NCBI GenBank assembly: GCA_031408165.1
Contig: JANOJK010000540.1
Coordinates: 1-30,597, forward strand
DNA length: 30,597 bases
DNA from: Acidobacteriota bacterium
Lineage (GTDB): Bacteria > Acidobacteriota > Vicinamibacteria > Vicinamibacterales > 2-12-FULL-66-21
Direction: 5' to 3'
Numbering within the stretch: position 1 is the first letter of the stretch; each line of letters begins with the position of its first letter. The position numbers and the translations under genes are program-made. The notes under the pieces were generated by a model, which did not search any database, was not told the origin of the DNA, and saw only the letters and a list, made by a program, of their open reading frames with translations. This document shows, piece after piece, positions 4,458-30,526 of this stretch.

Positions 4458-6755
4458 CTAGAAGCGGTAGTGGAGTCTGGCGAACGCGACGTTGGCCCTG
4501 TAAGGCCCGTCGTTCGCCTTGAGGTAGAAGGCGCCGGTGAGCGGGAAGGTTTCGATGCCGGCCGAGAACGCATCCGCGAAGAAGTACTTCTCGTACCAAT
4601 ACCCGACAGTCAAGCCCCAGGCCCGGGTCACGGTGTAGTCGATCTGGGCGGACACCGTCTGCAGCGTCGTGTCGCTGTAGTTCGTGATGTCCTGGATCCC
4701 GCCGTAGGACGCCCGGGCGAGAGCGAACGACCCGTTCGGGTTGCCGGTGACGTCCATGAGCCCGTCGAGCTTCTGGCGGCGCGCGAAGAGCGTCAGCGCC
4801 CACTTCTCGGGCACGATCCGGAATGTCGCGTTGGCGCCGTAGGTATCGGTCTTGTCGCTGCCGGCGAAGTTGAGGAGGCCGAGCACGGTGGTGCCGCCCG
4901 AGAAGGCCTGCGTCGTGCTGATGTTGTTCTCCCGGGTGTAGTAGACGTTGACCTCGACCCGTTCGCTCGGCGTGAGATCGATCTCGCCGGTGAACGTGTC
5001 GTACTTCGCCACGATCAAACCGTACGCCGTACCGGCGACACCGGGGACCGCGTCCGGGTTCCTGTAGTCGGCGTTGCGGCGGAAATACGCGACCACGAAA
5101 CCGACCCTGCTGTTGGGATTGACTTCCACATCGATGCCGGCGCGGGTCGAATCGCGTCGCTGCTCGTCGGCTTGAAGCCGGGTCGCGTCCGTGACGCCGG
5201 CACCGCTCGCCGTGCGCGACGCGTCGTCCACCGACCCGCGGACGCGCAGCCAGTCGCCGGTGTGGAGGACGGCCGCCAGCGTGACCCCCGTTTCCTTTCC
5301 CGCCTCCGCCTCACGAAAGGTCCGATCGACCTTGTTCTGCCGATAGGCGGCTTCGAAGGTGAACGACTTGATGTCGTAGCTCGCCGACAGGTCGGTTCGC
5401 TTCGACTTCAAGCCGTACGGGCTCGCCGTGAGGTAGCCCAGCGGCTCGGTCGCGAGATTGGTGTTCGAGAAGAGCCTGTCAGGGGACGCCGAGAAGCTGC
5501 CGATGCGGGGGATGACCGGCGTCTTGTTGTCGAGATCGTAGTGGCGGTAGCGCGCCCGCAGCCCGAGGCCCGCGATCGGCCGGCTCGAGAAGATGAACTT
5601 CAGCGACGTGGTGTCGATCTTCCCGTTGAGCGACTGGAACTGGAGCGACGCCAGGCTGTCGCCCGGCGCCCCGGTGCTGGTCACCGCCCTGGAGAAGATC
5701 GTGTACGGGTACAGCTGAGCGTTCTGTGTCCAGCGGCCGAACGCCGCGTCGGCTCCAAGCCGGGTCTGTCGCGCGAGCTTCAGCAGGCCGCCGAACGAAC
5801 CCGTGTTGGCGGCGTTGTCGGGCGGGTTGATGAAGAGCGCCCTCGACGTGCCGCCGGTGGCCGGAATCGCACCCGCGGCAGGCACGAAGGCCTGATCGAA
5901 CGCCACGAGCGGGTTGTCGACGATGAGCGTTTCCTGGCGATCGTTGTACCAGTTGCGGTTCAGTCCCCCGTGCACGTTCCCCCACCGCCGATTGAGCGCC
6001 AGCCTGACTCCGACATCCTGCATCACTTCGTTCAGCGGCTCGGGAACTTCGACGATGTTGTCGGAGAAGCCCCTGATGGTGCCGCCGCCGGCGCCGCGCG
6101 TGCCGGTCTTGACCTCGCGCAGGTAGCTCACCGCCAGATCGAACGGCAGATTCTGTCCGAAGCTGACCTCGACGTTGCCGCGCCTGCGCAGGCTCGCGAG
6201 ATCGACGAACCCGGCGGACGCGATCGTCGGCGCGTAGAGCGTCGAGAAGAAGTCGTAGTTGCGCGTCGCCGTTGGCACCCGGGCGTTGACTCTGTCCCCG
6301 AGCGCCTGACGCAGCGTTGCGTTCATGCCCCAGACGCCTGGTGCCAGTTGCGTCATGATCGTTCGGCCGCCGTTGCCCATGGCGTGGGGAATCTGGTTGT
6401 AGTCGAATGACACGCCGGCCCAGTCCGTGCTCGCCCATCCTGTATAGCGCTGATCGGACTGGGAGAGGTTCCGGCTGAACAGCGCGAAGTCGGTGCCCTT
6501 GTTGCGCCCCGCGAGCGTGAACATCGGCATGGAGACGCCCTTCGGGACGATTCGGTACTCCTCGAACTTGGATGACGCCACGTTGTCTCGGCCGAGCAGC
6601 AGCAGGCTGGCACCGCCCTCGAACCAGTTCGACGAGGTGTCGTCTGTCGCTGGGGGAGGGGACGGCGCCGCGGGCGCCGTCTGACCGAAGACCGGGGCAC
6701 TCACGGCGAGGATGCCGCAACTGAACGCCACAAGGAACAGGGGGGTATCCTTCAT
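4458..6755 (-). CDS. mtrB: MtrB/PioB family outer-membrane beta-barrel (porin of a porin-cytochrome conduit), 765 aa
   Basis: Start corrected to ATG 6755 (GAGG upstream, 2 nt after the mtrA stop). Signal peptide MKDTPLFLVAFSCGILAVSAPVFG, amphipathic beta-strand pattern, C-terminal ...LHYRF aromatic BAM signal, FEEYR near the N-terminus. Directly downstream of a decaheme cytochrome. Confidence 0.88.
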   Translation of the reverse strand: MKDTPLFLVAFSCGILAVSAPVFGQTAPAAPSPPPATDDTSSNWFEGGASLLLLGRDNVASSKFEEYRIVPKGVSMPMFTLAGRNKGTDFALFSRNLSQSDQRYTGWASTDWAGVSFDYNQIPHAMGNGGRTIMTQLAPGVWGMNATLRQALGDRVNARVPTATRNYDFFSTLYAPTIASAGFVDLASLRRRGNVEVSFGQNLPFDLAVSYLREVKTGTRGAGGGTIRGFSDNIVEVPEPLNEVMQDVGVRLALNRRWGNVHGGLNRNWYNDRQETLIVDNPLVAFDQAFVPAAGAIPATGGTSRALFINPPDNAANTGSFGGLLKLARQTRLGADAAFGRWTQNAQLYPYTIFSRAVTSTGAPGDSLASLQFQSLNGKIDTTSLKFIFSSRPIAGLGLRARYRHYDLDNKTPVIPRIGSFSASPDRLFSNTNLATEPLGYLTASPYGLKSKRTDLSASYDIKSFTFEAAYRQNKVDRTFREAEAGKETGVTLAAVLHTGDWLRVRGSVDDASRTASGAGVTDATRLQADEQRRDSTRAGIDVEVNPNSRVGFVVAYFRRNADYRNPDAVPGVAGTAYGLIVAKYDTFTGEIDLTPSERVEVNVYYTRENNISTTQAFSGGTTVLGLLNFAGSDKTDTYGANATFRIVPEKWALTLFARRQKLDGLMDVTGNPNGSFALARASYGGIQDITNYSDTTLQTVSAQIDYTVTRAWGLTVGYWYEKYFFADAFSAGIETFPLTGAFYLKANDGPYRANVAFARLHYRF

Positions 6756-6757
6756 GG

Positions 6758-7699
6758 CTACCTCACAAAGTACGCGCCCGAAGGTGAGTTCGAGCCGTGG
6801 ATGGCGAGGTGACATTGCTTGCAGCCACGTTCAGTGTTGCGTGAGCTCCGGGTCACCGTGCTGCCGGGGGGCGCGACCGGCAACCCCTCGAGCGAGCTCA
6901 GGTTGTCGGCCGTCAGCCCGTGGCCGGAGAAGTGACACCGCTGGCAGAGAAACGGCGTCTTGGCCACGAGAAGCCGTTCGTGGTTCGACCCATGCGGATC
7001 GTGGCACGTCACGCACTCTTCACGCACGGGCGCGTGTTCGTAGAGGAACGGCCCGCGCTTCTCGGTATGGCACTGGTAGCACTTCTCGTTGATCGAGTTG
7101 GCCGAGATCATTTTCGGGTTGGTCCCGTCGTGCGGGTTGTGACAGCTCGAGCAGCTCATCTTCCCTTCGCGCAACGGGTGGTGAGAGGTGCGCATCGACT
7201 TGGCGCGCTCGGACTTGTGGCACGTGAAGCAGGTCTCGGGGTCGGCCGCCGTCTTCAGCTGCGCCTTCGGCGACTTGAAGCTGTGGATGCTGTGGCACGT
7301 CGTGCAGGACACGTTTCTGCGCGCGTGCATGCTGCTCATGAAGCTGGCCTGATTGTCCTTCTCGTGGCACGTCAGGCACGTGTCGTTGATCTGCTTCGGG
7401 CTCAGGCTCTTGAAGGACGGAACCGGCCCCTTTTCGCCCGCCGACTGAGTCCTGGCGTGCTCGGCGACGTCGGAGTGACAGCTCGAGCAGTTCTGTTCGA
7501 TCCGGGCGTGCTTGCTCTGCTGGAAGGTCGAGGATGGACCCACGGCCTTCTCGTGACAGACCTTGCACTCGGCAGGGTCCCATTGCCCCGGGGCTTTCGG
7601 TGGCACTGCCTGCGCGGCGGTCTGAAGGCCTCCGACCAGAGCGACGGTCCCTCCGAGCAGAAGGGCCGATACACCGAGCACGCACAGACCAAGTCGCAT
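6758..7699 (-). CDS. mtrA: MtrA/DmsE family periplasmic decaheme cytochrome c
   Basis: Signal peptide plus exactly 10 CxxCH (CKVCH, CSSCH, CLTCH, CTTCH, CFTCH, CSSCH, CYQCH, CVTCH, CQRCH, CKQCH). Family motifs EKRGPFLYEHAPV, CHDPHGS and the C-terminal IHGSNSPSG..F.R. Confidence 0.95.
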   Translation of the reverse strand: MRLGLCVLGVSALLLGGTVALVGGLQTAAQAVPPKAPGQWDPAECKVCHEKAVGPSSTFQQSKHARIEQNCSSCHSDVAEHARTQSAGEKGPVPSFKSLSPKQINDTCLTCHEKDNQASFMSSMHARRNVSCTTCHSIHSFKSPKAQLKTAADPETCFTCHKSERAKSMRTSHHPLREGKMSCSSCHNPHDGTNPKMISANSINEKCYQCHTEKRGPFLYEHAPVREECVTCHDPHGSNHERLLVAKTPFLCQRCHFSGHGLTADNLSSLEGLPVAPPGSTVTRSSRNTERGCKQCHLAIHGSNSPSGAYFVR

Positions 7700-7790
7700 A
7701 GGCAGCCTTTCCAGGCGATTGTCATCGCATCACCGACGCGTCGAACACGGCCGCGAGGCCCGGCGGACAGTGTGGGAACGGGCGCCCCAG

Positions 7791-7806
7791 AGCAACATCA
7801 GTGCCG
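7791..7806 (-). promoter_or_regulatory. Sigma54 -24/-12 promoter for mtrA-mtrB
   Basis: The minus strand reads CGGCAC-TGATG-TTGCT: GG-N10-GC, matching TGGCAC-N5-TTGC. Correct orientation, about 90 nt upstream of the mtrA start. Confidence 0.7.
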
Positions 7807-7927
7807 CCGGTCGTCATCGGATCGTTTCAGCGGGATTCAGGAAGCAATCTGCGGGACCGTCGGACCTGCGGGAAAGGCAGAGTCGGCTTTCCCAACGCGA
7901 ACAACCGGGTACACCGCGGCGCCGCGT

Positions 7928-7937
7928 CGGGAACCCG
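7928..7937. promoter_or_regulatory. Palindromic motif CGG-RAAY-CCG, copy 1 (candidate activator site)
   Basis: CGGGAACCCG in the mtrA/hypF divergent intergenic region. The same 10-mer pattern recurs upstream of three other sigma54 promoters. Confidence 0.45.
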
Positions 7938-8086
7938 TCGTCACCTGCCCCTCGACACCGCTCATGCACAGGAAGAGCATGAACAACGGGCCGGATCGCG
8001 GGCCACGCGCCGCCCCGAGCACGGGCCGATTTCCCGGGCCCGGAATCCGCCCCACCCCTCCGCGAAGTAGTCCCCCGCGCCCCCGC

Positions 8087-8096
8087 CGGAAACCCG
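8087..8096. promoter_or_regulatory. Palindromic motif CGG-RAAY-CCG, copy 2
   Basis: CGGAAACCCG within GCCGGAAACCCGGCA (8085-8099), which matches 16469-16483 at 14 of 15 positions. About 60 nt upstream of the hypF -24 box. Confidence 0.5.
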
Positions 8097-8158
8097 GCAC
8101 GGGCCCCCGATCACCCGGCCATCCACCCGTTCTGCCGCTGAAAGCGCTCCTGCCTCCG

Positions 8159-8174
8159 TGGCACCGGCCTTGCC
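8159..8174 (+). promoter_or_regulatory. Sigma54 -24/-12 promoter for the hyp operon
   Basis: TGGCAC-CGGCC-TTGCC is a near-consensus match with exact GG-N10-GC spacing, just upstream of hypF. Confidence 0.8.
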
Positions 8175-8192
8175 ACCCATCGGATCACCCTC

Positions 8193-10520
8193 GTGCGAAT
8201 TTTCCACTTCGATGAAGTCGGTCGCAGGCCTGGGGCGTCTCTCGAGGGGCGCCGCATCCTGATGCGGGGCACCGTGCAGGGCGTCGGCTTCAGGCCGTGG
8301 GTCTACCGTGTGGCGCATGCCTCGTCCGTGACCGGACGCGTGCGCAACGACACGGCGGGCGTCACCATCGAAGCGTTCGGCTCGACGGGGGCCCTCGATG
8401 GGTTCGTCGAGCGACTGGCTCACGACGCCGCCCGCCCGGCCGCTGCCGTCGTCGAACACATGACCGCGGAGGCGATCGCGTTCGAGGACGCAAAGGATTT
8501 CTCGATCGTGCCGAGCACCACCGTCGCGGACCAGTGCGTGTCGATTCCCCCGGATCTGGCGACCTGCGCCGAATGCCTCGCGGAGATCCACGACCCGGCG
8601 GACCGGCGTTACCGCTATCCGTTCACCAACTGCACGAACTGCGGTCCGCGGGTCACGATCGTCCGCGCCGCGCCGTACGACCGGCCGGCGACGACGATGG
8701 CCGCGTTCGCAATGTGCGCCGAGTGCCGGCGCGAGTACCACGACGTGGCGGATCGGCGGTTTCACGCGCAGCCCAATGCCTGTCCCGCGTGCGGGCCGCG
8801 CCTGGATCTGCGAGACGCCGGCGGCGCGCCGCGCGAGAGCGCCGATCCGATCGCGGATGCTGCGCGCGCGCTGCGCGACGGGCTCGTCGTCGCGATCAAG
8901 GGCATCGGCGGCTTCCAGCTCGCGTGCGACGCCACGTCGGACGCCGCCGTGCAGCGGATGCGCGAACGGAAGCGCCGCGACGAGAAGCCCTTCGCGGTGA
9001 TGGTCCGGGACCTCGCCGGCGCGAGGGAGATCGCCGACCTCACCGCCCGGGAGGCGAGGCTGCTGCTCTCGGTCGAACGGCCCATCGTGCTCGTCGCGCG
9101 CCGGGAGGATTCCGGTCTCGCCCCGTCGATCGCGCCGCGCAACCCGCTCGTGGGGGTGCTCGCCGCGAACTCCCCGCTCCACGACCTCCTGCTCGCGGCG
9201 GCGGGCGTGCCTCTGGTGATGACGTCCGGCAACCTGTCTGAGGAGCCCATCGCGTGCGGCAACGAGGAAGCGCTGTCCCGACTGCGGGGGGTGGCCGACC
9301 TGTTCCTCCTTCACGATCGCGAGATCGTGACGCGGGCGGACGACTCGGTGGCGCGCGTCATCGCCCGGCGACCCGTCGTGTTCCGCCGCGCGCGCGGGTA
9401 CGTGCCGCGGGCGATCGCGGTGGCGAGGGCGTTCGACGTGCCGGTCCTCGCGTGCGGCGCGCAGCTCAAAAACACGTTCTGCTTCGGCCGCGGCCACGAG
9501 GCGGTGCTGGGCCCCCATATGGGGGATCTCGACCACGTGACCGTCTTCAGCGAGTACGAGGCGGCGATCGAGCGGCTGGCGCAGTTCCTTGACGTCACGC
9601 CCGCGATCGTTGCGCACGATCTCCATCCCGACTACATGTCGACCCGCTACGCGCTCAGCCGTCCCGGCGTCGTCACCATCGGCGTCCAGCACCACCATGC
9701 CCACGTCGCCAGCGTCATGGCGGAGCACGGCCTCACCGGCCACGTGCTGGGGCTCGCCTTCGACGGCACGGGATACGGAGCCGACGGGACGGCCTGGGGC
9801 GCCGAACTGCTCCTCGCGGACTATGCAGACTTCACGCGTCTGTCCACCTTCCGGCCGCTGCCGCTCGCCGGCGGCGACACGGCGATCCGGCAGCCCTGGC
9901 GCCTCGCGCTTGCGCTCGTGGACGACGCGTTCAAGGGGGAGGCGCCGCTCGACGGGTTTCCCGTGTTCCGGGACATCCCGCCCGCAGACATCGACGTGGT
10001 CACGCGAATGATCCGCCGCGGGTTCAACGCGCCGCGGTCGCACGGACTCGGCCGGTATTTCGACGCCTTCGGCGCACTGCTGCTCGACCGCCCCCGCGCG
10101 TCGTTCGACGGGCAGATCGCCCTCGAGCTGAACATGGCGGCCGATCCCGAAGAGAAACGCCGCTACGACTACGACATCGACCAGGCCTCCACCCCGTGGG
10201 AGGTCGACCTGCGGCCGGCCGTCCGCGCTGCGGTGTTCGAGTACCTCGGCGGTGAGACGGTGGCGCGCATTGCCGCGCGCATCCACAACACCCTGGCGGC
10301 GGCGAGCATCGACATGGTGCGCGCCGCGGCCCACGTGACGGGGCGGCTGCCGGTCGTGCTGTCGGGCGGGTGTTTCCAGAACGCGCGCCTTGCAGAATCG
10401 ATCGTCCGCGGCCTCGAGCCGGAAGTCCCCGTCCACCTGCACCAGCGCGTGCCGCCCGGCGACGGCGGGATTGCGCTCGGCCAGGCGGTTATCGCCGCTG
10501 CGAAGACAAGGAGCCTGTGA
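8193..10520 (+). CDS. hypF: Carbamoyltransferase HypF
   Basis: Acylphosphatase domain (GTVQGVGFRPWVY), two zinc fingers (CAEC..CTNCGPR; CAEC..CPACGP), YrdC-like domain (IKGIGGFQLACDA, LVMTSGN), Kae1-like HHHAH and GDGGIALGQ. The exact start (GTG 8193) is less certain. Confidence 0.97.
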   Translation: MRIFHFDEVGRRPGASLEGRRILMRGTVQGVGFRPWVYRVAHASSVTGRVRNDTAGVTIEAFGSTGALDGFVERLAHDAARPAAAVVEHMTAEAIAFEDAKDFSIVPSTTVADQCVSIPPDLATCAECLAEIHDPADRRYRYPFTNCTNCGPRVTIVRAAPYDRPATTMAAFAMCAECRREYHDVADRRFHAQPNACPACGPRLDLRDAGGAPRESADPIADAARALRDGLVVAIKGIGGFQLACDATSDAAVQRMRERKRRDEKPFAVMVRDLAGAREIADLTAREARLLLSVERPIVLVARREDSGLAPSIAPRNPLVGVLAANSPLHDLLLAAAGVPLVMTSGNLSEEPIACGNEEALSRLRGVADLFLLHDREIVTRADDSVARVIARRPVVFRRARGYVPRAIAVARAFDVPVLACGAQLKNTFCFGRGHEAVLGPHMGDLDHVTVFSEYEAAIERLAQFLDVTPAIVAHDLHPDYMSTRYALSRPGVVTIGVQHHHAHVASVMAEHGLTGHVLGLAFDGTGYGADGTAWGAELLLADYADFTRLSTFRPLPLAGGDTAIRQPWRLALALVDDAFKGEAPLDGFPVFRDIPPADIDVVTRMIRRGFNAPRSHGLGRYFDAFGALLLDRPRASFDGQIALELNMAADPEEKRRYDYDIDQASTPWEVDLRPAVRAAVFEYLGGETVARIAARIHNTLAAASIDMVRAAAHVTGRLPVVLSGGCFQNARLAESIVRGLEPEVPVHLHQRVPPGDGGIALGQAVIAAAKTRSL

Positions 10521-10822
10521 TGTGCTTGGGTGTACCGGGACGGGTGGTCGAGGTGCTGGAGAACATCGCGCTCGTCGATTTCTTCGGCGTGTGCCGGCAC
10601 GTGCGTCTCGAGCTGGTCGATCAGCCGGTCGCGCCGGGTGACTACATCCTGAATCACGTGGGGTTCGCGCTGCGCAAGATTCCCGCCGAGGACGTCGAGG
10701 GCACGCTCGCCATGTACGAGCGGCTGCTCAGCGAGGCGGACGACGACCTGATGGCCGCCGATGTGCGCGGAGAAATCGCGGCCGCCGCAGCCGCCGGCAC
10801 GAAGGGCGGATCCCATGACTGA
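10520..10822 (+). CDS. hypC: Hydrogenase maturation chaperone HypC (100 aa)
   Basis: Start corrected to ATG 10520, overlapping the hypF TGA. MCLGVPGRV N-terminal Cys motif and GDYILNHVGFAL. Confidence 0.95.
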   Translation: MCLGVPGRVVEVLENIALVDFFGVCRHVRLELVDQPVAPGDYILNHVGFALRKIPAEDVEGTLAMYERLLSEADDDLMAADVRGEIAAAAAAGTKGGSHD

Positions 10823-11957
10823 TCGGGCCGCGCGTGAACTGAAGTTCCGCGATCCGGCGCGCGCGGCGGGGCTGGCGGCCGCCCTGGCGAAGGCGGTTGG
10901 AGAGATCGACCACGCGCCCGTGTCGGTGATGCACGTGTGCGGGAGCCACGAGCAGGCGATCGCCCGCTTCGGGCTGCGCTCGATGTTTCCTCCGAACCTG
11001 CACGTCATCATGGGACCCGGGTGCCCGGTCTGCATCACCGACCAGCCGGAGGTCGACGAAGCGGTGGCCCTCGCGCGGCAAGGCGTGCGCGTCGCCACCT
11101 ACGGCGACATGGTCCGCGTGCCGGGCAGCTCGGCGTCGCTCGCCGACGCGCAAGCCGAAGGCGCGCAGGTCGACGTGGTCTACAGCATCGATCAGGCCAT
11201 CGCCATCGCGCGGGGATCGGAGGCGCCGGTCGTGTTCTTTGCCACCGGTTTCGAAACCACCGCGGTGGCGACCGCCGCCGCGATCCTGGCCGGCGTGCCG
11301 TCGAATTTCTTCGTCCTCTCGGCGCACAAGTACATCCCGCCCGCGATGGAGATCGTCGCCGGAATGCCGGACTCCCGCATCGAGGGGTTCGTGGCGGCGG
11401 GCCACGCCGCCATCATCACGGGCTCGGCGGTGTTCGAGGATTTCGCGGTGCGTCACCGCGTGCCGGTGGTGGTCGCCGGGTTCGAGCCGCTGGACATCCT
11501 CGCGGCGCTCGTGCGCCTCGCCGAGCTGATCCGCGATCGGCAGTGCACCGTCGAGAACATGTTTCCGCGCTGCGTCACCCGCAAGGGCAATCTCACCGCG
11601 CAGTCGCAGCTCTGGCGGGTCTTCGCCCCGATCGGCGGCCAGTGGCGCGGCATCGCCCTGATTCCCGACGGCAACCTCCGGCTGCGCGACGAATGGGCGC
11701 ATCTCGACGCGCGGCGCCGCTTCGCGATCGATCTGACCGGCGTCGGAGACCAGCCCCCTTCAGCGCTCGCGCTGCAATGTGTGTGCGGCGACATCATGAC
11801 CGGCTTGAAATCCCCGTCCGACTGCCCCCTGTTTGGCGGCGAGTGCGTGCCGGAGACGCCCGTGGGGGCGTGCATGGTCAGCACCGAAGGCACGTGCCGC
11901 ATCTGGCACGAATACGGTGTGTCGGATCCCTTGGCCCTCGTCGGGAGAACGTCATGA
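10815..11957 (+). CDS. hypD: Hydrogenase maturation protein HypD (380 aa)
   Basis: Start corrected to ATG 10815. HVCGSHE, GPGCPVC, GFETT, and the C-terminal Fe-S cysteines CGDIMTG..CPLFGGEC..VGACMVSTEGTC. Confidence 0.97.
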   Translation: MTDRAARELKFRDPARAAGLAAALAKAVGEIDHAPVSVMHVCGSHEQAIARFGLRSMFPPNLHVIMGPGCPVCITDQPEVDEAVALARQGVRVATYGDMVRVPGSSASLADAQAEGAQVDVVYSIDQAIAIARGSEAPVVFFATGFETTAVATAAAILAGVPSNFFVLSAHKYIPPAMEIVAGMPDSRIEGFVAAGHAAIITGSAVFEDFAVRHRVPVVVAGFEPLDILAALVRLAELIRDRQCTVENMFPRCVTRKGNLTAQSQLWRVFAPIGGQWRGIALIPDGNLRLRDEWAHLDARRRFAIDLTGVGDQPPSALALQCVCGDIMTGLKSPSDCPLFGGECVPETPVGACMVSTEGTCRIWHEYGVSDPLALVGRTS

Positions 11958-20897: not shown

Positions 20898-22240
<1,343 letters not shown>

Positions 22241-23556: not shown

Positions 23557-23964
23557 ATGACAACAAAAGCTATCAAGATTCTCGTGACTTGTGCCGTCCT
23601 GGTCGCCGCGCTCGGGGGCCTGATGTATACCACCCTCGCCGAGGGCACCGAATACTACATCCACGTCGACGAAGTGATGCAGGATCCGGAGGCCTGGAAG
23701 GGGAAGCGGCTGCAGCTCCACGGCTTTGTCTCCGACCTCCGCCAGCGGCCCAATTCGCTCGACTACAAGTTCCACGTGCAGTTCAACGGGCAGACGATCG
23801 CCGCGAGCTATACCGGGGTGGTGCCCGACACCTTCAAGAACGAGTCGGAAGTGGTGCTCAAGGGGCAGCTGCATCCGGACGGCTTCGTGGTGGCTGCCAA
23901 CGGCGTGATGGCGAAATGCCCGTCGAAGTACAACGCGCAGACCCCGCGAACGGCGGGAAGCTAG
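23557..23964 (+). CDS. ccmE: Heme chaperone CcmE, Cys variant (CxxxY, System I*)
   Basis: N-terminal TM anchor, YTGVVPDTFK and EVVLKG. C-terminal MAKCPSKY, where canonical CcmE has LAKHDENY. Confidence 0.93.
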   Translation: MTTKAIKILVTCAVLVAALGGLMYTTLAEGTEYYIHVDEVMQDPEAWKGKRLQLHGFVSDLRQRPNSLDYKFHVQFNGQTIAASYTGVVPDTFKNESEVVLKGQLHPDGFVVAANGVMAKCPSKYNAQTPRTAGS

Positions 23965-26415
23965 ATGCCTGCGCTCGGTTCTTTCATTCTCCTCGCCACC
24001 TTCGTGGTGGCGAGCTACGCGCTGGCCGCGTCGGTCGCGGGCGGACGGCGCCGCTCGCGCGCCCTCATCGAGAGCGGCATCAGCGCGTTCTACATGACGG
24101 CCGCGCTCATGGCGGTGGGGTCGGGCGTCATCATCCACGCGTTCGTCACCGACAACTACGCGATCAAGTACGTGCAGCGCTACTCGGACGCCGCGCAGCC
24201 GCTGGTCTACAAGATCACGTCGTACTGGGGCGGCCTCGACGGCTCGATCATGTTCTGGGTGCTCCTCCTGTCGGTGTTCGGCACGATTGCCGTGGCCACC
24301 AACCGTGAGCGCCACCGGGAGCTGATCCCCTGGGTCGTCGCCATCATCTCGGCGGTGGAGATGTTCTTCATCTTCATCATGGTGGTGCACAACAACCCGT
24401 TCGACACCTTCGTGGCGGCCGCGCCCGCCGACGGCAAGGGGCTCAATCCGCTCCTCCAGAACTTCTACATGGCCATCCATCCCCCGTCGCTGTACACGGG
24501 TTTCGTGGCCATGACGATTCCCTACGCGTTCGGCATGGCCGCGCTCATCACCGGGCACCTCGACGACGCGTGGCTGCGCGCGGTGCGGCGCTGGACGATG
24601 ATCGGCTGGCTCTTCCTGACCTTCGGCCTGACGCTCGGCATGCTCTGGGCGTACGAGGAGCTGGGCTGGGGCGGCTTCTGGGGATGGGACCCGGTCGAGA
24701 ACGCGGGCCTGCTGCCGTGGTTCACGGCGACGGCGTTCCTGCACTCCGTGCTCGTCCAGGAGCGCCGCGGCATGCTGCGCGTCTGGAACGTGACGCTCGT
24801 CATCACCACCTTCTTCCTGACGATCTTCGGCACCTTCATGACGCGGTCGGGCGTCGTGCAGTCGGTGCACGCGTTCGGCGAGGACCCCTGGCTCGCCAAG
24901 CTGTTCGCCGGCTTCATGGTGCTCATCGTCACCTTCAGCTTCGGCTGGGTCATCTACCGCCTGCCGCTGCTGAAGTCGCGGCACGAGCTCGATTCGTGGG
25001 TCTCACGGGAGGCCGCGTTCCTCGCCAACAACTGGATCCTGCTGTTCTCGGCGTTCTTCGTCCTGTTCGCGACGATGTTCCCGACGCTGAGCGAGGCCGT
25101 CCGCGGCCAGCGGCTCACCGTCGGCCCGCCGTTCTTCAACATGTGGATGCGCCCGATCGGCCTCGCGCTGCTGGTGCTCACGGGCATCGCGCCGCTGCTC
25201 GCGTGGCGCAAGTCCACGTTCACGAACCTCGTCCACAGTTTCACCTGGCCGGTCGCGGCCGGGATGGTGACCGGCGCGGCGGTCGTCGCGCTGGGGCTCC
25301 GCGTGTGGTCGTCGGGCATCTGTTTCGCGTTGTGCGCGTTTGTCGGCGCCACTCTCCTGCAGGAGTTCATCCGTGGCGCGCAGGTGCGCCGCGGCGCCTC
25401 CGGGTCGGACATCGTCACCGCGATGGTCGGCCTCGTGGCGCGACAGCAGCGGCGCTACGGCGGCTACATCGTGCACCTCGGGATCGTGCTGATGTTCCTG
25501 GGCTTCGCCGGGCAGGGATACAAGCTCGAAGAGAACATGAAGCTGAACCCCGGCCAGCAGGGCACGGTCGGGCAATTCACCGTGCGCCAGGACTCGATCA
25601 GCGTCACGAGCGACGATCAGAAGCAGATGATCACCGGGCACGTCACCGTGCTGCGCGGCGGCCGGGAGATCGCGCAGATGACGCCGGCGCGCTGGTTCTT
25701 CGCCAAGCACGAGGACCAGCCGACGACCGAGGTGGCTATCCGCCGCGCCGCCGGCGAGGATCTCTACATCGTGCTCGCGGCCTACGACGTGGCGACGCAG
25801 AACGCCACCTACTCGGTCACGGTCAATCCGCTCGTGAACTGGATCTGGCTCGGCTTCGGCGTACTCGCGATCGGCACCGGCATCGCGCTCCTTCCCGAGC
25901 GTGCGTTCGCCCTGGCCGGCGCCAGGGTTCCGGAGGGGGCGGTGACCTCCACGCTGGTCCTGCTCGCGCTGCTGCTCCCCGGGATCGCGGGGGCACAGAC
26001 CGTCGTTCCGCGCAGCGAGCTCCGCCGCCAGCTCGAAGCGGAGATCATGTGCAAATGCGGCGGCTGCATGGCGCCGATGAACAACTGCCCGATGGGCCCC
26101 GGCTGTCACGGGTTGAAGGAGCAGAGCGCGAAGCTCGACGCGTACCTCGCCAAGGGCATGACGCGCGACGAGGTCAAGGCGGCGTTCGTGGCGGATCACG
26201 GCGGACAGGACATCCTGGCCGCGCCGATCGATGAAGGCTTCAACCGCCTCGCATGGGCGCTGCCGTATGTCGCCGGGGCGACCGGCTTCGCGCTCGTGGG
26301 CCTGGCGGCGCGGCGCTGGGCGCGCCGCCAGGAAGACACGCCCGCCGCCCCGGCAGTTCCCGAGGAGGACGCGCTTCGCGCGCGGCTGGACGATGAGCTC
26401 AGAGACCTCGACTAA
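23965..26415 (+). CDS. ccmF: Cytochrome c heme lyase CcmF with a fused C-terminal CcmH-like domain
   Basis: IHPP, WGGFWGWDPVEN (WWD), TAFLHS, TRSGVVQSVHAF, HLGIVL and NPLVNWIWLG. From about residue 675 there is a CcmH-like domain (EIMCKCGGC...LAKGMTRDEVKAAFVADHGGQDILAAP) plus a TM helix. Confidence 0.95.
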   Translation: MPALGSFILLATFVVASYALAASVAGGRRRSRALIESGISAFYMTAALMAVGSGVIIHAFVTDNYAIKYVQRYSDAAQPLVYKITSYWGGLDGSIMFWVLLLSVFGTIAVATNRERHRELIPWVVAIISAVEMFFIFIMVVHNNPFDTFVAAAPADGKGLNPLLQNFYMAIHPPSLYTGFVAMTIPYAFGMAALITGHLDDAWLRAVRRWTMIGWLFLTFGLTLGMLWAYEELGWGGFWGWDPVENAGLLPWFTATAFLHSVLVQERRGMLRVWNVTLVITTFFLTIFGTFMTRSGVVQSVHAFGEDPWLAKLFAGFMVLIVTFSFGWVIYRLPLLKSRHELDSWVSREAAFLANNWILLFSAFFVLFATMFPTLSEAVRGQRLTVGPPFFNMWMRPIGLALLVLTGIAPLLAWRKSTFTNLVHSFTWPVAAGMVTGAAVVALGLRVWSSGICFALCAFVGATLLQEFIRGAQVRRGASGSDIVTAMVGLVARQQRRYGGYIVHLGIVLMFLGFAGQGYKLEENMKLNPGQQGTVGQFTVRQDSISVTSDDQKQMITGHVTVLRGGREIAQMTPARWFFAKHEDQPTTEVAIRRAAGEDLYIVLAAYDVATQNATYSVTVNPLVNWIWLGFGVLAIGTGIALLPERAFALAGARVPEGAVTSTLVLLALLLPGIAGAQTVVPRSELRRQLEAEIMCKCGGCMAPMNNCPMGPGCHGLKEQSAKLDAYLAKGMTRDEVKAAFVADHGGQDILAAPIDEGFNRLAWALPYVAGATGFALVGLAARRWARRQEDTPAAPAVPEEDALRARLDDELRDLD

Positions 26416-27004
26416 CGACGGCTTCCACGTCAATCATTTCTTCGTCCTCATGTCCCTGCTCGCCGCGACCGTCGCGGTCGTCATGGCACGCCAGAGCGCG
26501 CCGGAACACCTGATCCTGATCAGCCTCACGATCGGCGCCGCGGGCCTCGCGGGGCTCTGCTTCTACCGCACGCTCGCGCCGCTCGTGGCGCCGCACGCCG
26601 ACGTCGAGCGCCAGGCGCTCAGCGCCCGCGCGCGCGTCGATCTCGAACGCGAGAAGGCGCTGACGCTGCGGTCCATCAAGGAACTGGAGTTCGATCGCGC
26701 GATGGGGAAGGTTTCCCCCTCCGACTTCGAGGAGATGGCCGGCCGCCTCCGCGCCCGCGCGGTCGGGATCATGAAACAGCTCGACGCGGGGGTGTCCGCG
26801 TACCGCGCGCTGATCGAGAAGGAGCTGGCGGCGCGCGTGGGCAGCACACAGGTTGGACAGACGCCCGACCTGGGGGGCGGACCCACGGGGGACCGGCTCA
26901 CGGGAACGCCCACACGTGCACCGGGTGTGTGCGCCTGCGGGGTTTCGAACGACGCCGATGCCCGCTTCTGCAAGTCTTGCGGCGCGAAGCTGAGGGCGGC
27001 GTGA
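26393..27004 (+). CDS. Membrane protein with a CcmI-N-like helix and C-terminal zinc ribbon (203 aa)
   Basis: Start ATG 26393. Two TM helices, EREKALTLRSIKELEFDRAMGKVSPSDFEEM, and C-terminal CACG...ARFCKSCG. Confidence 0.75.
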   Translation: MSSETSTNDGFHVNHFFVLMSLLAATVAVVMARQSAPEHLILISLTIGAAGLAGLCFYRTLAPLVAPHADVERQALSARARVDLEREKALTLRSIKELEFDRAMGKVSPSDFEEMAGRLRARAVGIMKQLDAGVSAYRALIEKELAARVGSTQVGQTPDLGGGPTGDRLTGTPTRAPGVCACGVSNDADARFCKSCGAKLRAA

Positions 27005-28224
27005 ACCTGAAACGGGCTGCCGGCTTCGTGATTTGTCTGGCCGTTGTGGGCTTGACGCTGCGGTCCGCCGCGGCGCAGGCACCCTCTGCCGGCCAGGGCG
27101 CCCAGATGCCCGATCCCAAGGCCATGTCCGGCATGCCGCTGCCGGTGCCGGACATTCCGGTTGGCACCGTGACGGCCCGCGTCGTCCGCGGCGCGCTGAC
27201 CAATCCCCTCGCCGGCCAGAGCGTCGAGCTGACGGTCGCCGGCGGCGCGCCGAAAACCGCGACAACCGACGATGCCGGCCGCGCCAGCTTCATCGGTCTC
27301 GCGCCCGGGACCCGCGGCAAGGTGGTGGTGGTGGTCGACGGCGAGCGGGTCGAGTCCCAGGACTTCGACGTGCCGGCGGCCGGCGGGATCCGCGTCATGC
27401 TCGTCGCGACCGACGCCGCCATCGAACAGAAGTCCGCGGCCGATCGCAAGCTGGCCGCCGGGCCGGCGGTCACGGGCGCGGTCGTGTTCGGCGACCAGAG
27501 CCGCATCGTGATCGAGGTGGGGGACGACGCGCTGAACGTCTTCTACATCCTGCAAATCGTGAACACGGCGAAGCGTCCCGTGACGACGAGCGCCCCGCTC
27601 GTGTTCGACCTGCCGGCCGGAGCCGCCGGCGCGGGAGTGCTCGAAGGCTCCGCCCCGAACGCCGTCGCCGCCGGCAGCCGCGTCACCCTCACCGGCCCAT
27701 TCGCTCCGGGGAATACGCTCGTGCAGTTCGCCTACTCGGTGCCCCTCGGGAGCAGTGAGATCGTTCTGGCGCAGCGGCTGCCCGCGCCGATCACGCAGCT
27801 GTCGGTGATGGCGCAGAAGGTCGGCGGCATGCAGTTGTTGTCCCCGCAGTTCACAGAACGGCGGGAGTCGGTGGCCGACGGCCAGCATTACATCCTCGGG
27901 CAGGGCGGCGCGGTGAAGGCGGGCGATCTGGTGACGCTGACGCTCACGGGGCTGCCGCACCGGACCGTCTGGCCGCGATATGTCGCGCTGCTCCTGTCGG
28001 GCATCATCCTGGCGGCAGGCGCCTGGGGGGCGACGCGCGGGAGCGCCACGCCCCACCAGAACGCGCGGCGCGGGCAGCTCAACGCGCGCCGCGACAAGCT
28101 CTTCGCGGAGCTGGCGGGCCTCGAGGCCCAGCGGCGGAAGGGGACGGTTGACGCGCCGGCGTATGCCTCCAGGCGCGCCGATCTCGTGACCTCCCTCGAG
28201 GACCTGTACGCCGAGCTCGAATAA
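27001..28224 (+). CDS. Membrane-anchored periplasmic beta-sandwich protein with a CcmI-N-like cytoplasmic tail (407 aa)
   Basis: GTG 27001 overlaps the upstream TGA. Signal peptide, carboxypeptidase-regulatory-like repeat (PLAGQSVEL..TDDAGRASF.GLAPG), TM helix near the C-terminus, then RRDKLFAELAGLEAQRRKGTVDAPAYASRR. Confidence 0.75.
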   Translation: MNLKRAAGFVICLAVVGLTLRSAAAQAPSAGQGAQMPDPKAMSGMPLPVPDIPVGTVTARVVRGALTNPLAGQSVELTVAGGAPKTATTDDAGRASFIGLAPGTRGKVVVVVDGERVESQDFDVPAAGGIRVMLVATDAAIEQKSAADRKLAAGPAVTGAVVFGDQSRIVIEVGDDALNVFYILQIVNTAKRPVTTSAPLVFDLPAGAAGAGVLEGSAPNAVAAGSRVTLTGPFAPGNTLVQFAYSVPLGSSEIVLAQRLPAPITQLSVMAQKVGGMQLLSPQFTERRESVADGQHYILGQGGAVKAGDLVTLTLTGLPHRTVWPRYVALLLSGIILAAGAWGATRGSATPHQNARRGQLNARRDKLFAELAGLEAQRRKGTVDAPAYASRRADLVTSLEDLYAELE

Positions 28225-28228: not shown

Positions 28229-28879
28229 GTGCCCGTCGATTTCACGGCGGTGCGCATCGTCGAGGTCAGCCGGACGTTCGGCCGCCGCCGCGCGCTGAAC
28301 CGGGTGTCGCTGACGCTCGAGGCGGGGACGATCACCGCGCTCCTCGGGCACAACGGCGCCGGCAAGTCGACCCTGCTCTCGATCGCCGCGACGCTCCTGC
28401 GGCCGACCAGCGGTCGCGTGGAGTACGGAGACCGCGATGCCGCCGCCGGAGGGGCCGCCCTGCGCGCGCGCATCGGCCTGCTGGGCCACGATCTCTATCT
28501 CTACGCGGAGCTGACGGCCGCCGAGAACCTCCGCTTCTTCGCGAACGTGTACTCGCTGGACACCGTCGAGACGCGCGTCGACGCGTCACTGGATCGGGCC
28601 GGCCTGTCCGAGCGGCGCGACGACATCGTGGCCGGCTTCTCGCGGGGGATGCGCCAGCGCCTGGCGCTCGAGCGGGCGCTGATCCACGAGCCGCGTCTCC
28701 TGCTGCTCGACGAGCCGTTCACCGGCCTCGACGAAGCCGCGAGGGAGGCGCTCCGCGTCAGGCTGCGCGCGGCCCGTCAGGCGGGGGCCATCGTGCTGCT
28801 GACGACGCACGACACGGCGGCGATCGAGGGGCTGACCGATGCCGCAGTATCGCTCGTGGACGGGCGGCTGGCGGCGTGA
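28229..28879 (+). CDS. ccmA: Heme ABC exporter ATP-binding subunit CcmA
   Basis: Walker A GHNGAGKST, signature FSRGMRQR, Walker B LLLLDEP, H-loop TTH. Immediately upstream of ccmB. Confidence 0.92.
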   Translation: MPVDFTAVRIVEVSRTFGRRRALNRVSLTLEAGTITALLGHNGAGKSTLLSIAATLLRPTSGRVEYGDRDAAAGGAALRARIGLLGHDLYLYAELTAAENLRFFANVYSLDTVETRVDASLDRAGLSERRDDIVAGFSRGMRQRLALERALIHEPRLLLLDEPFTGLDEAAREALRVRLRAARQAGAIVLLTTHDTAAIEGLTDAAVSLVDGRLAA

Positions 28880-29559
28880 GGGGCTTTCTGAAGGCGATCT
28901 GGGTCGTGACGCGGAAGGACCTGCTGATCGAGACGCGCACCCGCGAGATCCTGCTGACCACGGTGTTCTTCGCGCTGGCCTGCGTGCTGGTGTTCGCGTT
29001 CGGATTCGTGCGGGAGGGGCGTCCGGTGCAGGACGCGGCGGCCGGCATCCTGTGGATCGCGATTGCCTTTTCCGGCACGCTGGCGCTCGGGCGCGCCTTC
29101 GAGCGCGAGCGGCAGGGAGAAACCCTGCGCGCGCTTCTCATCTCGCCGATCGACCGGTCGGCGCTCTATCTCGGGAAGCTGTGCGGGATCCTGGTCTTGC
29201 TGGCGGCCGTCGAGGTGCTGATCGTGCCGCTCGTCGCGCTGATGTTCCAGGCCCCGCTGTTCGACCACGCGCTGCTGATGCTCGGGTTGCTCGCGGCGGG
29301 CACGCTCGGCTTCACGGCCGTCGGCACGCTGTTCGCGGCGATGCTCGTCCGCGCGCGCAGCCGGGACGTGATGCTCCCGGTGCTCTTGTATCCGATCACC
29401 GTCCCGGTCATCATTGCCGGCGTCCGCGGGACCGCCGCGCTGCTGCAGCCGGAGGCCGACCTCCCGATGGCCCGGGCATGGCTCTCGATGCTCGTGTTCT
29501 TCGACGTGGTATTCGTGACGCTCGCGCTCTGGACCTTCGAGCCCGTGATGACGGAATAG
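28876..29559 (+). CDS. ccmB: Heme exporter membrane subunit CcmB
   Basis: RKDLLIETR, AAGILW, FERERQGETLRALL, LYLGK and MLPVLLYPITVPV. Six TM helices. Confidence 0.94.
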   Translation: MRGFLKAIWVVTRKDLLIETRTREILLTTVFFALACVLVFAFGFVREGRPVQDAAAGILWIAIAFSGTLALGRAFERERQGETLRALLISPIDRSALYLGKLCGILVLLAAVEVLIVPLVALMFQAPLFDHALLMLGLLAAGTLGFTAVGTLFAAMLVRARSRDVMLPVLLYPITVPVIIAGVRGTAALLQPEADLPMARAWLSMLVFFDVVFVTLALWTFEPVMTE

Positions 29560-29561: not shown

Positions 29562-30218
29562 ATGAAGAAACTCTTCGCTCCGCTGTCGATCGTTGCCGCG
29601 GCGATGTTCGTCTACGCGCCGTTCCTGATCCTGAACGCGCCGTACGAGGCGACGATGGGACTCGTCCAGAAGATCTTCTACTTCCACGCCGCGTGCGGCA
29701 TGGCGATGTTCCTGGCGGCGTTCGTCAGCGGCATCGGGAGCGGCATCTTCCTGTTCGCGCGCAAGCCGTGGGCGGACCGGCTGGCCGTCGCGGGCGCCGA
29801 GCTGACGATCATGATCGGCTTGATCGTCCTCGTCACCGGGCCGCTCTGGGCGCGCAAGGCGTGGGGCGTGTGGTGGCAGTGGGACGCGCGGCTCACCTCC
29901 ACCCTCGTCATGTGGCTCATCTTCAACGCCTACCTGCTGCTGCGCCGGTACGGCGGGCCGGGCTCCGATCGGCTGGCCGCGGCCGTCGCCCTCTTCGGCA
30001 TGGCGAACGTGCCGTTCGTGTACTGGTCGGTGAACGTGTGGCGGACCCTGCACCCGAAGACGTCGGTCATCCCGTCGCTCGTGCCGGGCATGAGAGGGCC
30101 GTTCTGGTTCTGTGTGGTGGCGTTCCTGCTCGTGTCCGCACTGATCCTGGTGGTCAGGGTCGAGCTCGAAAAGCGGCGGCAGGAGCTCGACGAGTTGTAC
30201 CTGGCGGCGGAAGAATAA
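29562..30218 (+). CDS. ccmC: Heme chaperone-loading protein CcmC (218 aa)
   Basis: Start corrected to ATG 29562. KIFYFH, the WWD motif WARKAWGVWWQWDARLTS, and RTLHP. Confidence 0.95.
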   Translation: MKKLFAPLSIVAAAMFVYAPFLILNAPYEATMGLVQKIFYFHAACGMAMFLAAFVSGIGSGIFLFARKPWADRLAVAGAELTIMIGLIVLVTGPLWARKAWGVWWQWDARLTSTLVMWLIFNAYLLLRRYGGPGSDRLAAAVALFGMANVPFVYWSVNVWRTLHPKTSVIPSLVPGMRGPFWFCVVAFLLVSALILVVRVELEKRRQELDELYLAAEE

Positions 30219-30235
30219 TCAGGCCGGAGAGAACC

Positions 30236-30526
30236 ATGAAACGCATCGCGAAAGTGCTACTGATCCTCGTGCTGCTCGGCGCGCCGCTGTACGCGCAGGT
30301 GCCGGTGCCGAAGGCGCCGCAAGGCGCGGCGCAGGACGGGTTCGTCCCGGTGGACTCGCCGATCGACGCGGACGACACCATGCCGGCGCCGCGTCTGGTG
30401 GCGATTGCCTACGGCTTCATCTGGGTCGTGCTGTTCGGCTACCTGTGGTCCGTCCGCAGCCGCCTGGCCAAAGTCGAGCACGAGATGGGGGTCGTCAGCC
30501 GCCGGCTGTCGTCCGGGGGGAAGTAG
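30236..30526 (+). CDS. ccmD: CcmD-like protein with an N-terminal signal peptide extension (96 aa)
   Basis: Start ATG 30236 (GGAGAG upstream). The C-terminal half LVAIAYGFIWVVLFGYLWSVRSRLAKVEHEM fits CcmD (TM helix then charged helix). Located after ccmC. Confidence 0.72.
   Translation: MKRIAKVLLILVLLGAPLYAQVPVPKAPQGAAQDGFVPVDSPIDADDTMPAPRLVAIAYGFIWVVLFGYLWSVRSRLAKVEHEMGVVSRRLSSGGK

Follow-up and report, generated by a model that had tools for sequence, protein, structure and literature searches.

The DNA examined here, which we call the window, is the entire 30,597-nt contig C847 (JANOJK010000540.1), the longest contig of an Acidobacteriota metagenome-assembled genome (MAG). It carries an MtrAB-type porin-decaheme pair that faces, across a 493-nt spacer, a complete operon for the maturation of [NiFe] centres (hypFCDEAB). 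Beyond that operon lie a radical SAM gene, an operon of inner-membrane cytochromes and a ccm cluster for cytochrome c maturation. An earlier note on this DNA, made from its letters alone, proposed an island for hydrogen-linked extracellular electron transfer. The components that it listed are where it placed them, and its count of 28 heme motifs holds (10 + 1 + 11 + 6, made up of 27 CX2CH and one CX3CH). We find that the mtrAB-hyp-ccm "island" consists mostly of housekeeping and respiratory operons brought side by side in this one genome, and that the linkage of hydrogenase to cytochrome genes, together with its regulon, is conserved and testable.

The MAG spans 5.35 Mb in 1237 contigs (N50 ~5 kb; 86.5% complete, 2.6% contamination, 67.5% G+C), and four public freshwater-sediment metagenome runs (X1-X4) hold the window locus; a single search over runs of any kind turned up no RNA run with it. 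The nearest relatives of the porin come from MAGs titled Acidobacteriota, Vicinamibacteria or Vicinamibacterales, and the remoter ones from Gemmatimonadota. An Acidobacteriota host, as the earlier note had supposed, is borne out by the best of these relatives, which are titled Vicinamibacteria, and the organism is probably a freshwater-sediment member of that class. Because the window has a G+C content of 69%, its genes were called by codon-position bias and checked with Pfam and NCBIfam.

The hyp genes run on the forward strand as hypF (8193-10520), hypC (10544-10822), hypD (10815-11957), hypE (11954-12970), hypA (12986-13327) and hypB (13324-14058). Pfam recognizes all six, which make up the full [NiFe]-centre maturation set in one co-directional, overlapping operon, the sole hyp set found in the genome. 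Overlapping hypB by 8 nt is orf216 (14051-14701, forward strand), whose 216-aa product has about six transmembrane (TM) segments, an HX4DH motif and a His-rich loop. This gene is kept behind hypB in relatives. It has no Pfam or NCBIfam match even at E ≤ 5, and its atlas neighbours are partly labelled NicO/UreH or DsbD_2. The six Hyp proteins that had been read from the letters are therefore all there, whereas the Ni transporter said to accompany them is suggested by motifs and gene context with no match to a hidden Markov model (HMM); we call orf216 a putative Ni/Co permease. In several relatives a gene of the enoyl-CoA hydratase/isomerase family sits between hypE and hypA (e.g., L052 5099-5926); the window does not have it, and hypE and hypA are adjacent there.

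Between the hyp genes and the cytochrome operon is the gene of a variant radical SAM protein (rSAM; 16541-17776, forward strand), which scores 175 bits against NF045502 (cut-off 125) and keeps this position in all relatives. It is followed by a small conserved open reading frame (ORF) of 65 aa (17790-17987, forward strand) that, by alignment, has a 54-nt in-frame deletion relative to its counterparts. The cytochrome operon itself opens with a conserved 84-aa ORF (18089-18343, forward strand) whose stop overlaps the start of the cytochrome c gene; it is kept in four genomes, is called in L052/L053 and has a weak GlutR_dimer match (21 bits). The next gene encodes a periplasmic monoheme class-I cytochrome c (18340-18687, forward strand; 115 aa, PF00034 at 46.5 bits, one CXXCH, signal-like N-terminus). 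Then come the three genes that we refer to as the trio, encoding an 11-heme cytochrome c, a separate cytochrome b and an ImcH-family hexaheme protein. In one genome of another family (G026), rSAM adjoins the trio without hyp, so rSAM may belong with the cytochromes.

The 11-heme cytochrome c (18746-20065, forward strand) has 11 CXXCH motifs and a C-terminal TM segment (residues 391-409) that bears a His (GLHTV). Its gene overlaps by 11 nt that of a membrane cytochrome b of the FdnI/HydC/Ni_hydr_CYTB superfamily (20055-20897, forward strand; at least four TM segments, 10 His). The match of the latter to PF01292 is marginal (32 bits; gathering threshold, GA, 30.1), the match to TIGR01583 (33 bits) is under the cut-off, and a sequence search of the PDB with this protein returned nothing. 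The pair had been described as a CbcL-like module. A multiheme c next to a HydC/FdnI-superfamily cytochrome b agrees with that description, but the fusion of multiheme c to six-TM cytochrome b seen in proteins of the CbcL/MtoC/MtrH type was not found, as the two are split genes built more like CbcBA. As in Geobacter CbcBA (GSU0593-0594), the c and b genes are separate and in the order c-b, the c protein has a His-bearing C-terminal TM segment, and the cytochrome b has four hydrophobic segments. Moreover, in relatives of the window the operon begins, like that of CbcBA, at a sigma-54 promoter, behind which come small hypothetical genes (10.1101/2021.04.15.440034). In contrast, the window c protein has 11 hemes where CbcA has 7 and CbcL has 9, the module, whose likeness to CbcB and CbcL is one of architecture, is unfused, unlike CbcL (GSU0274), and the sigma-54 promoter of the operon is degenerate in the window genome, unlike that of CbcBA. 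By analogy, we regard the 11-heme c and cytochrome b as a putative split bc-type quinol oxidoreductase with CbcL-like function. A protein search of metagenomes found 3445 relatives of the 11-heme protein, and the 120 that were listed were all split, 354-471 aa long and without PF01292. This search was set aside as a means of anchoring the protein to CbcL, since the listed relatives were all split and carried generic names.

The last gene of the operon (20894-22240, forward strand) encodes an ImcH-family inner-membrane hexaheme protein with a NapC/NirT-like region. Published criteria for ImcH are three TM helices, a CX3CH motif directly behind TM3, and 5-9 CX2CH motifs (PMC6295460). The predicted 448-aa protein has hydrophobic segments at residues 8-26, 39-57 and 91-109, a CX3CH motif (CGQVCH) at residue 122, and five CX2CH motifs at 147, 196, 303, 421 and 441, which is the motif and TM layout set out in that survey. 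These motif positions agree with those of published homologs (129/153/202/307/424/445; Table S3, PMC6295460), and the spacing of motifs and TM segments is nearly identical to that of the six-motif homologs of Acidobacteria and Gemmatimonas (PMC6295460). The earlier assignment of an ImcH-like module is thus well founded. What the protein has in common with Geobacter sulfurreducens ImcH (GSU3259) and its family is the three N-terminal TM segments, the CX3CH behind TM3 and the NapC/NirT-like region (PMC6295460). It differs from Geobacter ImcH in having six heme motifs rather than seven, with the C-terminal heme missing, in its length (448 versus 495-519 aa) and in being encoded last in an operon with a bc-type pair. 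An NrfH-like region matches 2J7A_C at E=2.6e-4; for the 11-heme and ImcH-like proteins, PDB searches returned no more than weak matches to NrfB or NrfH. The atlas neighbours of the ImcH-like protein include a Thermodesulfobacteriota cluster at 0.98, which we take as a lead only.

On the other side of the spacer, the reverse strand encodes an MtrA/DmsE-family periplasmic decaheme cytochrome c (6758-7699; 313 aa, 10 CXXCH, signal-like N-terminus) and an MtrB/PioB-family outer-membrane porin (4458-6815; 765-785 aa, with a start uncertain between 6755 and 6815 and a signal-like N-terminus). MtrA scores 235.6 bits against TIGR03508, above the cut-off of 192.2, and matches 6R2Q chain A over residues 44-310 at E=3.6e-51. 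The porin scores 141.9 bits against PF11854 (MtrB_PioB; GA 23), covering profile positions 36-635, and 90.2 bits against TIGR03509, under the NCBIfam subfamily cut-off of 240; a phmmer search of the PDB with it found no chain at E ≤ 0.01. On these profile scores we classify the predicted porin as a diverged member of the MtrB/PioB family. Its orthologs are 39-64% identical and always paired with MtrA, and of 28 related loci nearly all keep MtrA and the porin together. A decaheme MtrA encoded beside an MtrB/PioB porin is the arrangement of Shewanella MtrCAB (6R2Q), MtoAB and PioAB. The pair differs from Shewanella MtrCAB in that its porin is under the subfamily cut-off and no MtrC/OmcA-type surface decaheme gene adjoins it. 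The description "Shewanella-type conduit" is therefore right as to the 10-heme MtrA and its porin and not as to a surface partner; by composition, since no MtrC-type gene adjoins the pair, the window mtrAB is MtoAB/PioAB-like. Ten-heme ORFs are also present elsewhere in the genome (C474, C187), which holds four MtrAB-like pairs in all. One of these, on C133, is orthologous to the conduit behind the trio in G026. In a genome of the same family (G023:C24, 168254-170624), an in-frame TAG interrupts the orthologous MtrB, whose match falls into two parts and which may be a pseudogene.

Is the junction between mtrA and hypF real? The MAG is highly fragmented and contaminated to the extent given above, one of its contigs (C593, 1615 nt) overlaps the left end of the window (1-397) at 94.7% identity, which points to strain heterogeneity in the bin, and sequencing depth is ~20-30% higher on the hyp side. 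All of this would agree with an adjacency that is an artefact of assembly or binning. However, a 3349-nt contig in run X1, which may be the sample of origin, spans the junction (5143-8491) at 99.8% identity. Furthermore, two contigs of X3 meet at 8131/8137, three runs show almost even depth over the junction, and GC and codon usage are similar on either side. The junction is real on this evidence, and we consider an artefact very improbable.

The genome also encodes the hydrogenases that the Hyp proteins could serve, as the earlier note had required. Contig C750 groups the genes of a small subunit bearing the Tat motif SRRDFVK, the ferredoxin HybA, an NrfD-type HybB, the large subunit and a protease, and a PFOR gene is transcribed divergently beside them. 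HybA scores 340 bits against an equivalog cut-off of 263; HybO, HybB and HybC are each the best match, but under the E. coli equivalog cut-offs. The predicted C750 enzyme is a Hyb-type (E. coli Hyd-2-like, group 1) periplasmic uptake [NiFe] hydrogenase. A second, cytosolic group 3b-like [NiFe] hydrogenase is encoded on C920. The subunit order on C750 and in relatives (small subunit with Tat motif, HybA, HybB, large subunit, protease) is that of E. coli hydrogenase 2 (HybOABCD), and in sister genomes the hyp genes come directly after the hydrogenase. Two differences from E. coli stand out: here the hydrogenase-hyp cluster continues into radical SAM and inner-membrane multiheme cytochrome genes, and in the window genome the structural operon is detached from hyp. 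Chaining of contig ends from the window toward C750 gave joins with C593 on the left and C392 on the right (the latter by 141 nt at 100%) and did not reach C750.

The gene order hypFCDE(x)AB-permease-rSAM-cytochrome c-11-heme-cytochrome b-ImcH is collinear in G005, G009, L052 (GCA_009772905.1) and one JGI soil contig, where it extends through ccm as far as the contig permits. Two genomes of other genera (G013 and G022) have the array without the permease and without the monoheme cytochrome c, G017 has a looser hyp-cytochrome linkage, and L052/L053 have partial forms. In G005, G007 and G013 hypF comes immediately after the Hyb operon and on its strand, while PFOR is transcribed the other way; this hydrogenase-PFOR arrangement is the exact content of C750 in the window genome. 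We therefore take the ancestral state to be one co-directional hydrogenase-hyp-rSAM-cytochrome cluster. In the window genome, GHMP kinase, thrA, GFO, mtrB and mtrA instead lie upstream of hypF on the opposite strand. Other relatives also vary at this spot: G009 has an 8.7-kb insertion there and L052 an ECF sigma gene. One genome of the same genus (G007; L046, G007:C1 5313-8098) keeps the array without the 11-heme, cytochrome b and ImcH genes and retains the monoheme c. It is a natural trio-deletion variant that would be useful as a control, and, if the coupling to H2 is real, the window genome with its degenerate promoter would complete a natural comparison set.

The conduit genes behave differently. 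None of the 28 loci with orthologous mtrAB, most of them read with 10 kb on each side, has hyp nearby, and a search of 10 same-genus genomes gave no ortholog of the window porin. Only the window genome has mtrAB beside hypF, at the position of the sister genomes' hydrogenase operon. Consequently, the conserved link between hyp and the cytochromes that had been predicted holds for the inner-membrane cytochromes, in at least seven genomes or contigs of four genera, and not for mtrAB. The proposed tie to H2 gains from a Hyb hydrogenase in the genome, from hydrogenase-hyp-cytochrome synteny in sister genomes and from the promoter motifs described below. In four genomes of other families (G025, G026, L016 and L017), the trio is directly followed by a different pair, MtrA'B', which supports a chain from the inner to the outer membrane. 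A second, non-orthologous copy of the window layout occurs in G024 (L045, G024:C4 ~9700-18400). Upstream of a different [NiFe] hydrogenase-hyp cluster, and divergent from it, are genes for Usp, a 10-heme MtrA' and an MtrB/PioB-like porin, the last of which lies in two overlapping frames (16070-17740 and 16846-18360), suggesting a frameshift or sequencing error. Elsewhere in G026 (L047, G026:C16 8658-16213), genes for a 9-heme cytochrome c and a cytochrome b, paralogous to the window pair (27%/34% identity), come directly behind hypFCDE and a gene of the enoyl-CoA hydratase family; hypA and hypB are absent there.

What might tie these operons together is their promoters. We counted sigma-54 elements as matches to TGGCAC-N5-TTGCW with at most one mismatch, of which the 5.35-Mb genome has 104, or 0.59 per 30.6 kb. 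At two mismatches the window is no richer than shuffled sequence (9 vs 9.6), so weight can be given only to matches with no more than one mismatch, to where they lie and to how far they are conserved. The mtrA-hypF spacer holds two such elements, each with one mismatch and each directed at its own gene. One (8159-8174, forward strand) lies 19 nt upstream of the called hypF start and recurs at the equivalent place in G005 (as an identical 16-mer), G009, G007, G013 and L052, making six genomes with the window. The other (7791-7806, reverse strand) lies 92 nt upstream of mtrA. A sigma-54 element with at most one mismatch also precedes the cytochrome operon in seven relatives (G005, G009, G007, G013, G022, G017 and L052), and the hydrogenase small-subunit gene in the window genome (C750, at a distance of 59 nt) and in G005. 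The window itself has no such element in the spacer between rSAM and cytochrome c, the site being mutated: where G005, G009 and G007 keep an intact TGGCAC-N5-TTGC, alignment with L036, L034 and L046 places a degenerate TAGTCC-N5-TGGCC (18061-18076, forward strand), preceded by a dyad-like site with one mismatch (17963-17974).

Many of the sigma-54 elements, namely those at hypF, at the cytochrome operon and at MtrA'B' operons elsewhere, are accompanied at 40-80 nt on their upstream side by a rare dyad, CCGGAAANCCGG. At hypF it takes the form CCGGAAACCCGG (8086-8097), 62 nt upstream of the sigma-54 element, and the spacing is repeated in relatives; we consider it a candidate enhancer-binding-protein site. 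The 5.35-Mb genome contains the strict dyad 21 times, 13 of these being intergenic. In four cases a sigma-54-like element is found at a distance of 51-62 nt, where we estimate ~0.15 by chance, and these pairings are at hypF, at an MtrA'B' pair on C773 and at two other places. A second strict dyad in the window, CCGGAAATCCGG (16470-16481), is 60 nt upstream of the rSAM gene, and a shorter palindrome form is found upstream of rSAM in G007, G013 and G022. The palindrome CGG-RAAY-CCG was rejected as the defining motif, as an exact match to it is not kept at hypF in relatives and the longer form CCGGAAANCCGG is. In G025, of another family, a strict dyad stands 78 nt from a perfect sigma-54 consensus before a trio-MtrA'-MtrB' operon. 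In G024 a one-mismatch dyad lies between divergent sigma-54-like elements, a weaker one with two mismatches directed at the hydrogenase small subunit and one with a single mismatch directed at Usp-MtrA'-MtrB'. The PFOR gene beside the hydrogenase operon is preceded by the same arrangement of dyad and sigma-54-like element in G013 (C294) and G017 (C13), and the putative regulon may extend to pyruvate oxidation.

At the level of motifs, then, these sites have the makings of a sigma-54 regulon with a common enhancer site, and RpoN is present in the window genome. A candidate regulator of the dyad module, judged by its place and domains, is a short AAA+/HTH activator encoded beside the C773 promoter (3793-4809), with orthologs 64-66% identical beside the trio in G025 and G017. 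C773 (L054, 1-8701) carries, in order, this sigma-54 activator (AAA+/HTH only), a 246-aa radical SAM protein, the dyad and sigma-54-like element, MtrA' and MtrB'. Transcribed the other way are a HemN-like gene and the ferrochelatase gene, so that anaerobic heme synthesis adjoins a conduit operon. The earlier note had held that its reading would fail if the modules were expressed independently. The sigma-54 and dyad architecture common to these operons speaks against separate expression; in the window, the promoter of the cytochrome operon is itself degenerate.

How might these parts work together? We lean modestly towards an anaerobically induced respiratory regulon in which electrons from H2 and other donors would pass to quinone, from there to the ImcH and bc cytochromes, and outward through MtrAB-type conduits. 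Under this model, a ~22-kb array (hypFCDEAB, the putative permease, rSAM, the small ORFs, monoheme c, the bc pair, ImcH, BON and maf-ccm) would have been inherited vertically. A rearrangement in the window genome would then have parted the hydrogenase operon, now on C750, from hyp and left an MtrAB pair with its own sigma-54-like promoter facing hypF. The periplasmic Hyb enzyme would oxidise H2 and reduce menaquinone via HybA and HybB, and the quinol would be reoxidised by the ImcH-like protein and the split bc-type pair. Monoheme c and other periplasmic cytochromes could ferry electrons to MtrA, which, within the MtrB barrel, would conduct them through the outer membrane. The acceptors outside could be soluble or chelated Fe(III), Mn(IV), humics or partner cytochromes. 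Geobacter ImcH, CbcL and CbcBA and Shewanella MtrAB serve as models for the sequence of carriers, for the use of H2 and for outward flow, and we infer co-regulation from the promoter motifs. Hydrogen-driven electron export is, on this basis, plausible but unproven. A bolder form of the model is possible, and we are doubtful of it: a single sigma-54 activator acting at CCGGAAANCCGG would turn on the whole chain from H2 to the extracellular acceptor (Hyb, its maturation, the ImcH and bc quinol oxidases, and MtrAB), and conduits would have joined the hydrogenase locus on at least two separate occasions, once in the window genome and once in G024.

Several observations weigh against such a dedicated chain. 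The inverted repeat nearest the mtrA promoter (GGGAAAG-N10-CTTTCCC, 7870-7893, 64 nt upstream of the mtrA sigma-54 element) is unlike the hyp dyad, which lies 280 nt away. With the -24 GG gone from its promoter, the window's cytochrome operon may be weakly or differently expressed. The genome has ~35 sigma-54 activators, and sigma-54 alone therefore does not define one regulon. The linkage of hyp to the trio is limited to one family, whose members are kin and not independent cases, and no MtrC/OmcA-type gene adjoins mtrAB. The hyp genes must also serve the cytosolic group 3b-like hydrogenase. Because the quinone pool is common, H2 can be at most one of several donors, and the genome also encodes a bc-type cytochrome b and two heme-copper oxidases, so that the organism can respire oxygen as well. 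Because of that bc-type cytochrome b, the trio was rejected as the only route from quinol to cytochrome c. Finally, the same promoter module at PFOR in G013 and G017 would suit a general anaerobic regulon better than a dedicated chain from H2 to the outside.

That last point can be developed into an account of its own, in which a general anaerobic regulon and inherited gene order explain the locus and no dedicated chain exists. The hyp genes would mature two hydrogenases and ccm all cytochromes c, both being single-copy housekeeping sets. mtrAB would have landed by chance at a rearrangement-prone spot, where relatives have the hydrogenase operon, the 8.7-kb insertion or the ECF sigma gene; the absence of hyp from all 28 orthologous mtrAB loci agrees with this. 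The trio would be one of several quinol:cytochrome c branches, possibly feeding periplasmic reductases or oxidases via the monoheme c, whose best NCBIfam matches are oxidase-linked cytochromes, all below cut-off. The promoter module at PFOR and the bc-type cytochrome b and two oxidases of the genome speak for this account as well. It does not, however, lead one to expect the trio joined to MtrA'B' in four genomes of other families, one of which (G025) has the same dyad and sigma-54 module, or the second, non-orthologous hydrogenase and MtrA'B' pair arranged divergently around one dyad in G024. Nor does it predict that the window mtrA should have acquired a sigma-54-type promoter, which is present at only 3 of 25 orthologous loci. 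We judge it rather unlikely.

Electrons might also flow inward. In that case the conduit would act like MtoAB or PioAB, passing electrons from Fe(II), reduced humics or cathodes to the quinone pool or the oxidases; genes for the use of two alternative lithotrophic donors, H2 and Fe(II), would then adjoin each other, the monoheme c would be MtoD-like, and the bc module MtoC/CbcL-like. Clusters of mtoA-mtoB-mtoC (a CbcL homolog)-mtoD (a monoheme c) are known in Fe(II) oxidisers, and CbcL/MtoC homologs have been implicated in both directions (PMC6295460). The missing surface decaheme beside mtrAB and the heme-copper oxidases would suit this direction too. Nevertheless, ImcH has so far been implicated in quinol oxidation only (PMC6295460), and co-regulation with PFOR and a typically anaerobic Hyb hydrogenase suggest anoxia, where acceptors rather than donors are limiting. 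We regard inward flow as improbable and retain the outward respiratory regulon as our working model.

Every protein family in the window is already known. ImcH homologs in Acidobacteria, MtrAB homologs without MtrC, and Acidobacteriota porin-multiheme clusters with H2 as a possible donor have all been published (PMC6295460, PMC8805035, 10.64898/2026.05.27.727921). The hybrid Geobacter/Shewanella chain of the earlier note is consequently a label only, as ImcH-, Cbc- and MtrAB-type proteins are already common in Acidobacteriota (PMC6295460). The peat Acidobacteriota clusters are the closest comparison: there too, H2 was proposed as an extra donor and ccm was expressed alongside (10.64898/2026.05.27.727921). 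Those clusters differ in belonging to Terriglobia and Bryobacterales, in having sequence-divergent conduits and hydrogenases of groups 3 and 4, and in that no physical or promoter-level linkage of hydrogenase and cytochromes was reported (10.64898/2026.05.27.727921). Our literature search on physical hyb/hyp-ImcH/Cbc linkage and on Mtr or Mto genes of Vicinamibacteria found nothing specific. The following appear to be undescribed in the literature that could be searched: the conserved hydrogenase-hyp-rSAM-bc/ImcH supercluster, the ImcH genes directly beside MtrAB-type pairs, the shared sigma-54/dyad module that is also found at MtrA'B' operons, and the repeated recruitment of conduits to hydrogenase loci. 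The second of these, seen in the trio genomes of other families, is an adjacency that the 2018 survey explicitly did not find (PMC6295460).

Why would such a linkage matter? Vicinamibacteria, to which the host probably belongs, are mostly regarded as aerobic heterotrophs. If a chain from H2 to the outside under one activator exists, members of this lineage would respire metals or humics with hydrogen under anoxia. If the coupling is true, the dyad, the sigma-54 promoter and the activator together would offer a testable genetic marker for H2-driven extracellular respiration. Such a marker would cover an abundant, mostly uncultured soil and sediment lineage and would bear on iron, humic and hydrogen cycling in anoxic microsites.

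The right-hand part of the window is occupied by BON, maf and ccm genes. The BON-domain gene (22335-22853, reverse strand; PF04972) probably starts near 22790; a weak sigma-54-like element (22824-22839) and a dyad-like site (22882-22893) lie upstream of it, and G007 has a one-mismatch sigma-54 element 97 nt upstream of BON. On the forward strand follow maf (22930-23520), ccmE (23557-23964), ccmF with a C-terminal CcmH-like domain (23965-26415), orf203 (26393-27004), orf415 (26977-28224), ccmA (28229-28879), ccmB (28876-29559), ccmC (29562-30218) and orf96 (30236-30526), the named genes being assigned by Pfam. This is a System I Ccm in which CcmA, B, C, E and F are clear and CcmH is a weak domain on CcmF (24.8 bits vs GA 25). 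The operon had been said to lack only ccmG. ccmG was indeed not identified, but neither were CcmD and CcmI by HMM in the window, so the statement was too precise. At permissive Pfam and NCBIfam thresholds, orf203, orf415 and orf96, like orf216, fell into no family. The maf-ccm genes are collinear in G005, G009, G007 and L052, and their adjacency to the array holds within the genus only. Since this is the single ccm cluster found in the genome and no ResB was found there, we consider ccm a housekeeping maturation system, and the idea of a Ccm dedicated to this locus is rejected.

Among the genes that the earlier note did not mention are the variant radical SAM gene, the two small conserved ORFs, BON, Maf, and an NAD-dependent epimerase/dehydratase-family gene (14816-16405, reverse strand; PF01370). 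The last of these lies between orf216 and rSAM and has no counterpart there in G009 or L052. To the left of the porin gene, the reverse strand encodes a GHMP kinase, an aspartokinase/homoserine dehydrogenase (thrA) and a GFO/IDH/MocA oxidoreductase. Within the gene of this oxidoreductase (3903-4203), the summed contig depth is ~3-7x that of the adjacent bins in runs X1-X3 and far higher still in X4, a run poor in this organism (125, with ~2 in the adjacent bins); this stretch is probably common to other abundant organisms at ≥95% identity.

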